Source of the DNA: a virus
Taxonomy: Duplodnaviria; Heunggongvirae; Uroviricota; Caudoviricetes
IMG/VR virus record: IMGVR_UViG_2703718778_000014
Reading direction: 5' to 3' (one strand)
Length of the DNA stretch: 23,312 bases
Of the stretch, positions 6,513 through 17,539 are shown in pieces. The position numbers and the translations under genes are program-made. Below the pieces are notes generated by a model. It was not told the origin of the DNA and made no database searches. It worked only from the letters and a program-made list of their open reading frames with translations. The stretch's first letter is position 1. Each line of letters opens with the position of its first letter.

Positions 6513-6546
6513 GTCTGTAACAACCGAACTGATAGTCTGCCAGCCC

Positions 6547-9415: not shown

Positions 9416-10642
9416 ATGTCAGGAACCATAACAAAAATCAGCACAGGGGAAAATGTTCTGTCAGCAGCAATCCATCGCATTGAATGGTTGTTCGAAACGT
9501 TTAATGAGGTCTGCTTGTCTTTTTCTGGTGGCAAAGACTCTACTGTGCTTTTCCATCTTGTGGCAGAAGTCGCCAGTAGAAAAAAACGTCGTTTTTCGGT
9601 TTTATTCATTGACTGGGAAGCCCAATATCAGTGCACGATTAATCATATCCAAAAGATGAGGGAAATGTACCGGCATGTGACAGACAATTTTTACTGGGTA
9701 GCGCTTCCTCTGACTACGGTAAATGGCGTCTCTCAGTTTCAGCCAGAATGGATATGTTGGGAGCCAGGTGTAGAATGGGTTCGTCAGCCACCAGATGACG
9801 CTATTACAGATATGTCGTATTTCCCATTTTATCGGTATGCCATGACGTTTGAAGAATTTGTTCCGGCATTTTCTTCCTGGTTTGCCGGTAACCGATGTGG
9901 AGTGGGAATACTAACTGGTGTTCGTGCTGATGAATCGCTCAATCGCTTTATGGGACTGGTGTCTCAGCGCAAACTGAGATATGCAGATGATAAACCCTGG
10001 AGCACCGCTTCACCCGATGGTTTTTACTACACCATGTATCCATTGTATGACTGGAAAACAAATGATATATGGACGTATAACTCAAGAACCCGCGCCATCT
10101 ACAATCCCCTGTACGACCTAATGTACCGTGCCGGAGTGTCGTTACGCAACATGCGTGTTTGTGAGCCCTTTGGCCCGGAACAGCGTAAGGGGCTGTGGCT
10201 TTACCATGTTCTGGAGCCGGAAACCTGGGCCAGGATGTGTGAGCGAGTGTCAGGGGCTGCCAGTGGCGCTCTTTATGCCAATGAAAGCGGTGCCTATTTT
10301 GCTCTGCGTAAACGAATCACAAAACCGGCTCATCATACCTGGCGCAGCTACGCAATGTTCATGCTGGATGTTATGCCAGAAAGAACAGCAGAACATTACC
10401 GTAACAAAATTGCAGTCTACCTGCGCTGGTATCAGACGCGGGGCTTCCCGGATGATATCCCGGATGAACAGGAGAATGACCTGGGGAGCCGGGATATCCC
10501 GTCCTGGCGACGTATCTGTAAGACGCTCATAAAGAATGACTTCTGGTGCCGGACCCTCTCCTTCAGTCCGAACAAACCCCGGCACTATGAGCGTTATCTG
10601 CAACGAATGAAGGAAAGGAGGAAAGAATGGGGGATTCTGTGA
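9416..10642 (+). CDS. ibrA: PAPS-reductase-like PP-loop ATP pyrophosphatase (IbrA-like, DndC-like fold), 408 aa
   Basis: PP-loop motif SFSGGKDS near the N-terminus; 3' end overlaps the next gene by 16 nt. Confidence 0.65.
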   Translation: MSGTITKISTGENVLSAAIHRIEWLFETFNEVCLSFSGGKDSTVLFHLVAEVASRKKRRFSVLFIDWEAQYQCTINHIQKMREMYRHVTDNFYWVALPLTTVNGVSQFQPEWICWEPGVEWVRQPPDDAITDMSYFPFYRYAMTFEEFVPAFSSWFAGNRCGVGILTGVRADESLNRFMGLVSQRKLRYADDKPWSTASPDGFYYTMYPLYDWKTNDIWTYNSRTRAIYNPLYDLMYRAGVSLRNMRVCEPFGPEQRKGLWLYHVLEPETWARMCERVSGAASGALYANESGAYFALRKRITKPAHHTWRSYAMFMLDVMPERTAEHYRNKIAVYLRWYQTRGFPDDIPDEQENDLGSRDIPSWRRICKTLIKNDFWCRTLSFSPNKPRHYERYLQRMKERRKEWGIL

Positions 10643-11271
10643 CGCCTGAGATGGATGTACTAAGCAACATGATTCGTCAGTACTTCAGTCGGGAACAGCC
10701 CGAAGAAGAGTCCATACGAGCCCTTAACCATCTGCGCAGGGTACTGCATGAAGTCAGTCCTTTTGCACAGGAGCCTGTAGACTGTGTGCTGTGGGTGAAA
10801 GCGGATGAGGTGGTAGCCAACGATTATAACCCCAATGTCATGGCACCAAGTGAGAAGAAACTGCTGAAGCAGTCACTGGAAAAAGATGGTTTCACACAAC
10901 CGGTGGTGGTGTCAGAGGAGAAGAATCATTATCTGGTGGTGGATGGTTTTCATCGTCAGTTATTGGGCAGAGAATCAGTTACAGGAAAACGTCTGAGGGG
11001 CTGGCTGCCTGTAGCCTGTATTAATCCAGAGAGAAAAGGGCAAGCCGCACGCATTGCCGCAACCATTCGACATAACCGGGCTAGGGGGAAACACCAGATA
11101 GACTCAGTGTCTGATATTGTAAGAGATCTTTCACGCTTGGGATGGGCAGATGAACGCATTGGCACTGAGTTGGGTATGGATCAGGATGAAGTACTGAGAC
11201 TTAAACAAATTAGCGGGCTAACTGAGTTATTTCAGGAAGTGGATTTCAGCCCGGCATGGACAGTTAAATAG
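10627..11271 (+). CDS. ibrB: ParB N-terminal-domain (ParB/sulfiredoxin-like nuclease) protein (IbrB-like), 214 aa
   Basis: Strong RBS AAGGAGG; ParB-box-like HYLVVDGFHR and basic TIRHNRARG block; translationally coupled to the upstream gene. Confidence 0.65.
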   Translation: MGDSVTPEMDVLSNMIRQYFSREQPEEESIRALNHLRRVLHEVSPFAQEPVDCVLWVKADEVVANDYNPNVMAPSEKKLLKQSLEKDGFTQPVVVSEEKNHYLVVDGFHRQLLGRESVTGKRLRGWLPVACINPERKGQAARIAATIRHNRARGKHQIDSVSDIVRDLSRLGWADERIGTELGMDQDEVLRLKQISGLTELFQEVDFSPAWTVK

Positions 11272-12757: not shown

Positions 12758-13195
12758 TCACTCTCCTTTGATGCGAATGCCAGCGACGCGTAATGCGTGT
12801 TCTAGGTCAATCAGGTAAAGCCAACTGCCATTTTCTTTAGGTATCATGACTTGTCGCTCATCTGCATTTATCGGGTGTCCATATCGAAGGTCGTAACGAG
12901 TCGGTAATTGAACTTCCCGCGCTTCCAGTTCAGCAATACGCTTGCTCCCATCAGAGATAACGCCTTCGTAATACTCACGCTGCTCGTTGAGTTGTGATTT
13001 TGCTTCTTCCAGTCCATCCAGCAAATCAGCGATAATATCCGCTTCCCGATGACGGATGTGACGCTTAAACGCCGCTAAAGCTGCATCACAATCCTGTTCA
13101 GCGTTTGGACTGTCTGGCTTTTCCTGATACCACGCCAGCGTCGATTGATAGTTTTGTGCTGCCTCACGCAGTGCCTGATAGTCAATCTTGCTCAC
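12758..13195 (-). CDS. Ead/Ea22-like phage protein (145 aa)
   Basis: GTG start at 13195 with RBS AAAGGAGG; N-terminus SKIDYQALREAAQ resembles Ea22-like proteins as recalled; coiled-coil-like middle. Confidence 0.45.
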   Translation of the reverse strand: MSKIDYQALREAAQNYQSTLAWYQEKPDSPNAEQDCDAALAAFKRHIRHREADIIADLLDGLEEAKSQLNEQREYYEGVISDGSKRIAELEAREVQLPTRYDLRYGHPINADERQVMIPKENGSWLYLIDLEHALRVAGIRIKGE

Positions 13196-14056: not shown

Positions 14057-14370
14057 TCCTGAACCCTCCTGTCGAAATAAACGTAGTTATTCACTGCGCC
14101 CAACTTCATCCCAAACTTTTCGGCAATTTCCCGTTGGGGTACGCCACGCTGATGCAGTTGCCGCGCCAGCTCAATATCACGCTGTGAGAATTTGGCTGAC
14201 TGGTGATAATCACCCCGTAACATCATGCTGATCCCCAGTTCCCGCGCTTTCGTCCTGACGGCTGACTCACTACGGCCAATCAGATAACCGATGCTTTCGA
14301 CTCTCATCGTTCCCGCACACTGCCGGAGTATCAGGATTTCAGCCCAACGCCACTTCTTCCAGCCACTCAC
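14053..14370 (-). CDS. Putative DNA-binding protein with two helix-turn-helix-like segments
   Basis: GTG at 14370 overlapping the stop of the 44-aa ORF (GTGA); segments SESAVRTKARELGI and QREIAEKFGMKLGAVNNYV look like HTH motifs; the ORF-track upstream extension to 14457 looks non-coding. Confidence 0.4.
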   Translation of the reverse strand: MSGWKKWRWAEILILRQCAGTMRVESIGYLIGRSESAVRTKARELGISMMLRGDYHQSAKFSQRDIELARQLHQRGVPQREIAEKFGMKLGAVNNYVYFDRRVQE

Positions 14371-14501
14371 CGCTGCTGCTCTCTGGTGGTGGTAATATCC
14401 CGGAGAATATCCCTGTGTTTGTTCAGTTCCCGCAGCGCAGCACAGACTCGCTCCCACTTCTGGACATCACTTTTCGCCCGACGCAGTTCGCGGTTTGCCA
14501 T
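14367..14501 (-). CDS. Small basic protein (44 aa), translationally coupled to the downstream HTH gene
   Basis: ATG at 14501, 6 nt after the preceding gene's stop; MANRELRRAKSDVQKWERVCAALRELNKHRDILRDITTTREQQR; not in the ORF track (short). Confidence 0.3.
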   Translation of the reverse strand: MANRELRRAKSDVQKWERVCAALRELNKHRDILRDITTTREQQR

Positions 14502-14507
14502 ATGCAG

Positions 14508-15083
14508 CTATGGTAAAACCAGGTCATCCGCTTGCGTTTCGGTGAACAGTGGCAACGACTGCACAATATCCACCACAGTTTCTGTTTTAATATCTTCCTG
14601 TGTAGTCGTTTGCTGGACTGGTAACGCAACACCTGCTGGCTGAGGAAGGGCTTTACCATCCGTTTCCGCTACAGATGCGGCTTTCGGCTCTACTGGTAAA
14701 TTATCGCCCGGCATGCAGTAACGAAATTTACCGCCCTGATTCACGCGAATCAGACGCCCTTTGCTGATTGCCATTGCCAGCGATGAATTCGCACGGCGGG
14801 AGGTAATTCCGAACATCAATGCCAGCTCATCCGCCGTTTGTGGGCCATGTTGTTCAATCGCCTCTGTCAGCATTTGCGCCGTCACTTTTGGTGGTTGTAT
14901 CACAGATTCACTTTCCCCTGCCTGAGTCAGCCACCACATCGCCCCCCTGTTATCCGCTTCACCACGGCGTTTCAGTTTCCACAGTTCGTTGACAGCCTCT
15001 TCACGACTGATTCCAAGGCGCGCAGCCACCACATGTGAAGAGGCTTTTTTCAGTGCTTTCAGTGCGTCAGATACGGTTTCCAT
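14508..15083 (-). CDS. Phage protein with N-terminal winged-helix-like domain (191 aa)
   Basis: ATG at 15083 with RBS GGAGGA; N-terminal [34 protein letters not shown]; family not firmly recognised. Confidence 0.5.
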
Positions 15084-15104: not shown

Positions 15105-15851
15105 TTACTTCACAACCCTCATATTGCTGACATTTGGACGCCAGCTATCCCAGTTAAACGTCACCCATCGACCACCGTTCATGGTCATGCGGTCCATAAT
15201 CCTCTCACCAAGAAGCGTACTCATTGCGGCATGATTCAGGTTTGTTAACATCCCGACACTGCACAGTGATGCTGTCCGGCGATCAATTATCTGGTGCAAT
15301 ACCACCTGCTCGTTTTTCGTCTCCCGCTGGACGCCTATTTCATCCAGGACCAGCAAATCAACCCCGCAAAGCTCCTGTAAAAATTTTTCCCCGGATTTGC
15401 CGTTGTCGTAGCTGTCATGCAACACGCTCATGACGTCAGACACGGTGACGATAATCACGCTGCGCCCCTTCACCATCAGCCGGTTGCCCATCGCCGCTGC
15501 AAGGTGATTTTTCCCGGTGCCGGTTTTACCGCTGAACACAAAATTCGTGCACCCGGTCATCAGTTCGTCAGCTATGGATTTGGCCTAGCTCAGCGCGTAT
15601 TTTTGCCCGTCGTTCTGCACCTGATAATTTGCAAACGAGCATTTGCTGTGCAGAGGCTGGATGCCCGAACGATTCAGGATTTTTTCCACCCGCAACTGGC
15701 GATTCTGGCAGTTAATCTCCTCGCTGCGTTTTCGTCCTTCAGCAAGTTGCCATTCCCGCCACTCCTCCACCGTCCGGTACGGTGGAACCGCCCCCAGTGG
15801 TGCAAGTCTGCGAATACATTCAAGAACCCCAACTGCCGCAATGTTTTTCAT
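15105..15851 (-). pseudogene. DnaC-like helicase loader (YdaV-like) interrupted by a single in-frame amber codon
   Basis: N-terminal fragment (15588..15851, ends ...FANYQVQNDGQKYALS) and C-terminal fragment (15105..15560, FSGKTGTGKNHLAAA Walker A) are in one frame separated by TAG at 15585-15587; read-through gives ...KYALS*AKSIADELMTG..., collinear with E. coli DnaC. Confidence 0.7.
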
Positions 15852-15857
15852 GCCACA

Positions 15858-16841
15858 TCACCCCCTGAATCCCGGCGGTATTTCAGTGTCCGGTTCAGAA
15901 ATGTGATTTACGCAACGCTGCGCGGGCGAACGCCCCAGGCGGATAACCAGTTCATCCCATTTTTCCCTGAGTTTTGCCGGACTCATGATGTTTTTTACCC
16001 AGAACGAATCCCGCTGGACACGCCCAAACATTTCACAAATCTGCCGGTGACTACGTCCATCCAGCATACGCATCATGCGCACATCATTCGCCCAGGTCGT
16101 CCAGTTAGGTTCTCTGGGGCGTGACACCTCACCATCATCACTGGCGGCCTGTTCATACAACGCCACAACCCGTCCCCAAATCCACTGCGCACAGGCGACA
16201 TCCTCACGGGTACCCCACTGTCGCTTCGGTACATTCCAGGTATGCGCATCTGGGTGTTTCTCCAGAAATCGCTCAACTGGTGATGATCGTTTTTCGTCCA
16301 GCAGTGAAACGTCCGGACAAGAAGATCTTTTATCTGACGGATCAGGTTTTAATACTGACGGATCGGGGTCAATCATCGCCCCCCTAATACGCAGTTTTTT
16401 ATCAACCGTTGATCCATCAACATTTGACGGGTCAACCGTTGAGGGGGCAATATTTGACGGGTTAACTGTTAACGGGTCATTTTTTGCCGGGCTAATTTTT
16501 CTTTTCGGTTTATATGCCTCACGCGCCGCAGTTGCAGCTGCTTCGAGTTTTTCCACATTAAGCCGATAGATATTGCTTACGTTACGCCCACCGACCTTAC
16601 GCTCTTCCTTCGTCAGCCAGCCCTCTTTCGCCAGTTCTGCAATAGCAGATTTAACGGTGGATTCACTTCTTGCACCGATCTGACGCCGGATAGTTTCAAT
16701 GGCAGGCCATGACACGCCCTCGTCATTGCTGTAGTCTGCAAGACGGGCCATAACCGCCACCCTGGATAAGATCATGCCGGTGAAGGCGCACCCTTCCCAG
16801 ACAAGACCATGAAGCTTGCTGCTCATAAACCCCCCGAACAC
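15858..16841 (-). CDS. Replication initiator, lambda O-like / YdaU-like, with internal iterons
   Basis: N-terminal HTH-like region (VSWPAIETIRRQIGARSESTVKSAIAELAKEGWL); start is GTG at 16841 or ATG at 16826 (G-rich RBS); contains the iteron cluster at 16402-16476. Confidence 0.6.
   Translation of the reverse strand: MFGGFMSSKLHGLVWEGCAFTGMILSRVAVMARLADYSNDEGVSWPAIETIRRQIGARSESTVKSAIAELAKEGWLTKEERKVGGRNVSNIYRLNVEKLEAAATAAREAYKPKRKISPAKNDPLTVNPSNIAPSTVDPSNVDGSTVDKKLRIRGAMIDPDPSVLKPDPSDKRSSCPDVSLLDEKRSSPVERFLEKHPDAHTWNVPKRQWGTREDVACAQWIWGRVVALYEQAASDDGEVSRPREPNWTTWANDVRMMRMLDGRSHRQICEMFGRVQRDSFWVKNIMSPAKLREKWDELVIRLGRSPAQRCVNHISEPDTEIPPGFRG
16402..16476. repeat. Iteron cluster (candidate replication origin) inside the O-like gene
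   Basis: Five tandem roughly 15-bp units of the form TCAAC-NN-TTGA-CGGG (tcaaccgttgatcc, tcaacatttgacggg, tcaaccgttgaggggg, caatatttgacggg, ttaactgttaacggg) followed by an AT-rich tract (16477-16520). Confidence 0.5.
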
Positions 16842-17274: not shown

Positions 17275-17539
17275 GAATCAAGCTCCTAGAAAGTGGTTGT
17301 GTTAACGTTTTGGTATCTTCCAGCTCAGGCCAAATATTCATCCAATCAAAAGGCCTTAGTTGCTGACGTGTAACTTCACCATTACTGGCTCGCTCAATAA
17401 GGACACATAACGATGCCCCTAACACTTGGCCTTTACTCAATGCCTTTCTTAGATAACCGATGCTGGTACCACACTCGCATGCAAACATACGCTGTTCATC
17501 TGACGAAAGAGAATTGAGAAATATTCTTAATTCTTCCAT
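17258..17539 (-). CDS. Cro-like / YdaS-like HTH regulator (93 aa), first gene of the early-right operon
   Basis: ATG at 17539 with strong RBS AAGGAG; HTH-like segment CECGTSIGYLRKALSKGQ; divergent from the repressor gene across the operator cluster. Confidence 0.5.
   Translation of the reverse strand: MEELRIFLNSLSSDEQRMFACECGTSIGYLRKALSKGQVLGASLCVLIERASNGEVTRQQLRPFDWMNIWPELEDTKTLTQPLSRSLIHENQA

Follow-up and report, generated by a model that had tools for sequence, protein, structure and literature searches.

In lacI, amber hotspots that are about 10-fold over-represented reflect G:C-to-A:T changes at the second C of CCAGG (Coulondre et al. 1978, reviewed in PMC12606429). The explanation given for them is that 5-methylcytosine deaminates to thymine, which cannot be removed by uracil glycosylase (PMC12606429). 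Vsr acts on T:G mismatches in CTWGG/CCWGG (PMC2715241). A second system relevant here is the E. coli helicase loader DnaC, whose DnaB-binding domain (HBD) comprises residues 1-75 and whose Walker A lysine is residue 112. The isolated HBD loads DnaB on circular single-stranded DNA in vitro at about half the wild-type level, and it comes close to full-length DnaC in activating unwinding (PMC8213410). A third is the Rac-type ydaS-ydaT-ydaU-ydaV module, which serves replication and immunity in cryptic prophages of E. coli. Here, we compare with these systems a DnaC-like gene of an E. coli prophage that is interrupted by an amber codon.

The window, which is the whole stretch of DNA that was analyzed (23,312 nucleotides of a Caudoviricetes virus, IMG/VR record IMGVR_UViG_2703718778_000014), carries on its minus strand a DnaC/YdaV-type AAA+ helicase-loader gene of 248 codons, now a pseudogene (15105 to 15851), recognized by translation, by its match to DnaC and by PGAP. 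Minus-strand translation of 15851 to 15105 revealed a sole internal stop, which follows DGQKYALS and precedes AKSIADELMTGCTNFVFSGKTGTGKN. This stop is amber codon 89 (TAG at 15587 to 15585, minus strand; CTA on the plus strand), equivalent to DnaC residue 87. When the stop was restored to Gln, a phmmer search of the PDB matched the protein to E. coli DnaC (6qel_G) with an E value of 1.7e-72, query residues 9-242 corresponding to DnaC 7-241. The loader also matched the Pfam family IstB_IS21 (PF01695) with a score of 66 bits (3.5e-18), where the cutoff is 24.1. In the alignment with DnaC (PDB 6QEL/6QEM), the two proteins are collinear over loader residues 9-242 and the motif columns are conserved: Walker A (GKTGTGKN, versus GKPGTGKN with K112 in DnaC), Walker B (LVLDEIG, versus LVIDEIG with E170), the sensor I asparagine (MLTN in both, N203), and the arginine finger (GERIMDR, versus GERVMDR with R216 and R220), where DnaC motif residue numbers are those of PMC8213410. 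Translation and the 6qel_G alignment thus confirm the first-pass annotation in its central claim, a single in-frame amber codon in a gene collinear with DnaC. The locus has the helicase-binding domain, the AAA+ fold, and the motifs of the DnaC/DnaI family, and its frame is interrupted; judged on sequence, it is a member of that family by descent, but a pseudogene. RefSeq (PGAP) labels the copy in E. coli S19-651 "ATP-binding protein, pseudo, internal stop." Unlike DnaC, the loader is a truncated prophage paralogue of the YdaV type that presumably partners its own O-like initiator.

The stop divides the gene into two open reading frames. The N-terminal frame (15588 to 15851, minus strand; 88 codons) aligns to DnaC 7-86 and encodes the DnaB-binding domain plus about 11 residues. 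The stop falls 11 residues past the end of the HBD, and the 88-residue product resembles the DnaC HBD construct used in vitro. The C-terminal frame (15105 to 15560, minus strand), found in the open reading frame list, has 151 codons counted from the ATG at codon 98 (15560 to 15558). It contains the Walker A motif GKTGTGKN, the Walker B motif DEIG, the sensor I asparagine, and the arginine finger, and it is without the HBD; gene callers predict it on 353 contigs.

The surroundings of the loader reproduce the order of the Rac-type module, with a Cro-like regulator, a YdaT-family gene, a helix-turn-helix initiator, the DnaC-like ATP-binding protein, and DUF1627, and like the Rac-type module they belong to a decaying, chromosomally fixed lambdoid prophage. 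In contrast to that module, the integration site is ompW, the cargo consists of Stx-phage-like late-region genes together with adhesin, SPATE, and IbrAB-like genes, and the loader is about 78% identical to the gene of strain R1 that PGAP names ydaV (162 differences in 747 nt). The upstream O-like/YdaU-like initiator gene (15858 to 16841, minus strand; HTH_36 and a weak DnaD_N match), for which the annotation gives a helix-turn-helix domain-containing protein, is intact, with a stop codon 6 nt before the loader ATG. A repeat search located an iteron-like array inside this gene (16402 to 16491), composed of five overlapping 30-nt copies of the TCAACnnTTGAnGGG type at 15-bp spacing. The array appears intact and, as a candidate, is probably the prophage replication origin. 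Downstream, the loader adjoins a DUF1627 gene (14367 to 15083, minus strand; Pfam DUF1627 at 6.5e-89; flagged "internal stop" by PGAP) with an in-frame amber codon of its own at 14510 to 14508. That codon changed from TCG (Ser) to TAG by a C>A transversion and is not a Dcm site.

A prophage integrated at ompW in E. coli S19-651 (NZ_CP075852.1) is near-identical to the window. The two differ by a 270-bp deletion at window position 6546, one mismatch at the deletion edge, and two single-nucleotide polymorphisms (SNPs), and they are identical across the loader region. The 270 bp absent from the window correspond to 429834-430103 of the S19-651 record; their loss removes most of a 65-residue hypothetical gene between a methyltransferase gene and the Q antiterminator gene. 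Other full-length matches to the window also span about 270 bp more, consistent with the presence of this segment in those genomes. The genome from which the window comes would accordingly be a close relative that is not among the complete RefSeq genomes. The prophage is about 60.6 kb long and has at least five lesions besides the loader amber: its portal gene is split by IS600, its tape-measure gene is frameshifted, a methyltransferase gene is reduced to a fragment, a hypothetical gene is frameshifted, and the DUF1627 gene carries the amber codon described above. From these lesions, the prophage is predicted to be unable to form particles whatever its replication status. Its cargo (window 9416-11271, plus strand; S19-651 record 387191-393642 and 403702-404796) includes genes for an OmpC-like porin, a YadA-like trimeric autotransporter adhesin, and an S6-family (SPATE) protease, together with a PAPS-reductase-like gene and an IbrB-like gene that form a pair of the IbrA/IbrB type. 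At the position that stx occupies in Stx phages, between the tRNAs and the SASA esterase gene, there are instead a "tolA"-like open reading frame and a methyltransferase fragment.

A trivial explanation for the stop would be a sequencing or assembly error, which nothing beyond the prior and the single-base nature of the difference favors. A 35-nt probe centered on the TAG had an exact match in 9 of 5,426 complete E. coli genomes, namely, S19-651, STEC17-183, STEC2018-607, LZSFT34, the Japanese strains JNEC-KY179, KY208, KY203, and KY177, and GN02050 from the USA. These nine genomes come from independent laboratories and trace to Switzerland (S19-651, the one record read), China, Japan, and the USA. 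LZSFT34 is from a hospital-sewage study (PMC10667442), and serotypes among the carriers include O91:H14, OgN4:H18, and O48:H45 (PMC13534694). The allele is also found on hundreds of public contigs: in a collection of 15 billion proteins, the exact 88-residue fragment occurred on 222 contigs in the form found in the window, on 64 in the KY203 form, and on 23 in the GN02050 form. An error of sequencing or assembly is almost certainly not the source of the stop. Two other 88-residue proteins labeled partial (P0017 and P0024) were considered as further independent origins and rejected, since they are proteins cut short at contig ends rather than products of TAG alleles.

The stop is nevertheless rare when set against the intact gene. 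The CAG version of the same 35-nt probe matched 1,285 places in 1,159 genomes, and TAG accordingly accounts for 9 of about 1,294 copies (0.7%). Codon 89 is CAG (Gln) in each of the four intact alleles that were read (FDAARGOS_1290, SCU-106, SCU-387, and R1). The first-pass annotation had placed the stop one base from a sense codon, naming AAG and CAG as examples, and had called for an alignment of intact homologues; that alignment identifies CAG as the ancestral codon. It had also pointed out that homologues naturally encoded as two genes would undo its reading. Instead, the loader is one continuous gene in 1,159 genomes and in Stx phages. The nearest phage homologues, which are about 82% identical and full length, are those of the inducible Stx phages POCJ13, 75/02 Stx, and phiSTEC1589-Stx1c, and a search of the phage collection for a near-identical loader copy returned none, its best matches being these of about 82% identity. 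A naturally split, two-gene loader was therefore rejected: no split homologue was seen among the 1,159 genomes and the Stx phages, and no Shine-Dalgarno (SD) sequence precedes the ATG at codon 98.

The comparison of alleles places the mutation at a Dcm site. Intact alleles read GAGCCAGGCC where the window reads GAGCTAGGCC; the ancestral context is AGC-CAG-GCC, and the change is a C>T at the second C of CCAGG, gene position 265, which leaves CTAGG at 15584 to 15588 on the minus strand (CCTAG on the plus strand), the deaminated form of the Dcm site. CCWGG occurs only twice in the 747 nt of the intact gene. A stop can be reached in this gene by 80 single-base routes, exactly one of which falls on a Dcm 5-methylcytosine, and that one is the observed change; the other three Dcm-borne transitions in the gene would be silent. 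The S19-651 annotation includes both dcm (1,419 nt, without a pseudogene flag) and vsr, both intact, and the dcm-vsr pair is present in 5,359 of the 5,426 complete genomes. The locus thus combines a C>T at the second C of CCWGG, a host with an annotated dcm, and recurrence at the same base, as detailed below. In the mechanism we propose, codon 89 was originally CAG within CCAGG, and host Dcm would have methylated the second C. Spontaneous deamination of 5-methylcytosine would then have produced thymine, and a T:G mismatch missed by Vsr very-short-patch repair would have become fixed as CTAGG, creating the amber codon. Vsr repair of T:G at such sites is probably incomplete. From the sequence context we infer deamination, not polymerase error, as the cause of the C>T, although an error of replication could also yield this transition. 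Taken together, the data make it likely that the loader was pseudogenised by a true nonsense mutation, that this TAG originated by deamination of a Dcm 5-methylcytosine, and that it is one of several lesions in a decaying prophage.

The parallel with lacI is close: the same G:C-to-A:T change at the second C of CCAGG converts CAG to TAG in a Dcm-encoding host, with repeated hits. Unlike the lacI hotspots, which come from a laboratory mutant collection, the amber allele occurs naturally in wild E. coli prophages, deamination is read from the alleles, and Vsr is present, such that the site is only partly protected.

CTAG as a whole is scarce in the 23.3-kb window, where five occurrences were observed versus about 90 predicted from composition. 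All five (11081, 12802, 15585, about 17285-17286, and 22701) lie in a CTAGG/CCTAG context, which is the sequence that Dcm-site deamination leaves. Two of the four sites other than codon 89 were covered by alignment. At 12802, SCU-106, KY203, and KY177 match the window and FDAARGOS_1290 is without alignment; at 17285, all four relatives match the window.

A mutational hotspot would be expected to produce the same stop repeatedly, in different prophages, and the GN02050 allele suggests that it has done so at least twice. In GN02050, the TAG is found in another prophage, whose repressor is of the LexA type, whose DUF1627 gene is intact, and which shares about 91.5% identity with the window in this region. 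The GN02050 allele lies on the common haplotype 34C/56A/142C/522T, in contrast to the window haplotype 34T/56T/142T/522C. SCU-387, which has the same prophage as GN02050, differs from it across the 747-nt gene only at position 265, where it has C and GN02050 has T. Because the GN02050 TAG stands on another haplotype in another prophage and SCU-387 differs only at position 265, the amber appears to have arisen at least twice independently, unless a patch of less than 380 bp was transferred. Such a short recombination patch, rather than a new mutation, could in principle account for the GN02050 allele. The probable origin of the amber at a Dcm 5-methylcytosine hotspot, apparently hit at least twice, is what this analysis adds to the earlier description of the stop, which had also passed over the DUF1627 amber and the other disabling lesions.

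Both GN02050 (locus L005, 3050-3796) and SCU-387 (locus L009, 3151-3897) have a Gly-to-Arg change in Walker A, giving GKTGTRKN. That the SCU-387 gene, intact in other respects, also has this change suggests that the loader of this prophage was impaired already before the amber arose. Short-read contigs from five NCBI assemblies (L015-L019), which carry intact-type alleles of two haplotypes, have ends at gene position 264-266, which is the hotspot base. Such ends may reflect a fork in the assembly graph caused by C and T copies in one genome, or a k-mer effect of the nearest upstream SNP.

Within the ompW prophage family, the history of the allele is more complex. Twelve flanking sites unite the window with SCU-106, to the exclusion of KY203 and KY177. 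At the loader, SCU-106 has CAG and 522T, whereas the KY strains have TAG and 522C, as does the window. Because SCU-106 falls with the window-type prophage at these flanking sites yet has CAG and the common base at 522, the history of the allele in this family, as read from these sites, is not tree-like and involves recombination or reversion. Conversion of a short tract, with a second ydaV-type copy as donor, would be the simplest way for SCU-106 to have regained CAG, since that genome has two matching places. A Vsr-stimulated change of CTAGG to CCAGG is also on record (PMC2715241). At the DUF1627 amber, window-type prophages and SCU-106 read TAG, and KY203 and KY177 read TCG. The DUF1627 and loader ambers are 1.08 kb apart and occur in all four combinations, which indicates recombination or conversion between the two sites.

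The first-pass annotation had left two escape routes by which the loader might still be made, host amber suppression and reinitiation at the ATG at 15560, and neither gained support. An amber suppressor tRNA, or readthrough, would restore the full-length loader, and the residues involved are suited to it: the ancestral residue, Gln, is what a supE-type tRNA would reinsert, and the amber of the adjoining gene replaced a Ser that supD could restore. A CTA-anticodon probe further showed that supE alleles exist in 155 genomes of the collection. However, the 60 of these 155 genomes that were listed are of K-12 size (4.5-4.8 Mb), many of them named K-12, and no TAG carrier is among them. In S19-651, glnV and glnX (the supE locus) read CTG and serU (the supD locus) reads CGA, all wild type, and ARAGORN found no tRNA with a CUA anticodon in the whole S19-651 prophage plus its flanks, where the only tRNAs are tRNA-Arg(tcg) and tRNA-Met/Ile(cat). 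The suppressor check covered the prophage and the supE and supD loci of S19-651 alone, and all tRNAs of the prophage as well as glnV/glnX and serU are nonsuppressor. The pattern is also not that of a conserved recoding site, for 99% of copies lack the stop (9 TAG versus 1,285 CAG) and a cognate tRNA is lacking at the loci examined. We consider restoration of the loader by suppression or readthrough highly improbable.

Translation could alternatively restart at the ATG of codon 98, 24 nt downstream of the TAG, which would make the locus a two-polypeptide gene with a 151-residue, AAA+-only second product. E. coli shows short-range reinitiation after nonsense codons. The ATG is only 8 codons past the stop, and the frame that it opens runs to the natural end of the gene with all AAA+ motifs. 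The 25 nt before the ATG at 15560 contain no SD-like sequence, however, and the product would be without the DnaB-binding domain and about 20 residues of the start of the AAA+ fold, leaving the two pieces untethered. Furthermore, no homologue seen in the 1,159 genomes is split here, and in JNEC-KY177 (locus L008, 3106-3856) a 4-bp insertion has already frameshifted the AAA+ part downstream of the amber. A functional two-polypeptide gene is very unlikely on these grounds; low-level reinitiation at codon 98 may occur, and the resulting fragment is predicted to be unable to bind DnaB. The KY177 frameshift would mark a later step in the decay of this pseudogene, of the sort that a remnant free of constraint should undergo.

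Translation would thus end after residue 88, giving a DnaB-binding domain without the AAA+ ATPase/single-stranded-DNA-binding module. With no suppressor seen at the loci examined, the full loader would not be made. The prophage is likely replication-defective, as the first-pass annotation had suggested. Because the 88-residue product equals the HBD, which is active alone in vitro, we infer this defect rather than take it as given. Nor is the loader amber the sole reason that the prophage is defective, because the prophage has other disabling lesions.

By analogy with the DnaC HBD, the 88-residue product could retain activity on host DnaB. The truncation might then be functional, with a stand-alone HBD that remains able to open and load host DnaB, or to act on it in some other way, and an allele that is tolerated or selected, so that its recurrence and wide distribution would reflect selection as well as mutational bias. 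Several observations fit: the fragment (DnaC 7-86) covers the whole HBD (1-75), the isolated domain is active in vitro (PMC8213410), the allele occurs in three serotypes and on about 300 contigs, and the KY177 frameshift lies downstream of the stop and leaves the 88-codon frame open. We nevertheless regard a functional truncation as unlikely. The stop is present in only 9 of about 1,294 copies, a mutational hotspot alone explains its recurrence, and the prophage cannot make particles anyway, its portal gene being split by IS600 and its tape-measure gene frameshifted. The more specific proposal, that the 88-residue HBD opens host DnaB and keeps the origin partly functional or modulates host helicase loading, and that selection maintains the allele, rests on the same analogy and is quite unlikely; if it were true, the persistence of the allele across serotypes would reflect selection and not simple decay.

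On the preferred reading, a nonsense mutation from Dcm-site deamination, the locus would be a case of ordinary gene decay, a nonsense pseudogene, already flagged by RefSeq, in a decaying prophage, and would exemplify two familiar phenomena, the pseudogenisation of prophage genes and amber hotspots at Dcm sites. Its value is modest: it would be a clean case, from nature, of what lacI showed in 1978. It also calls for caution in annotation, as the truncated product matches a domain that is biochemically active alone, and "replication-defective" is not to be assumed. As for the prophages themselves, those of wild E. coli appear to have taken, at least twice, the only Dcm-borne route to a stop that the loader gene offers. 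As far as the alleles can tell, this shows how Dcm methylation would shape which prophage genes go first.
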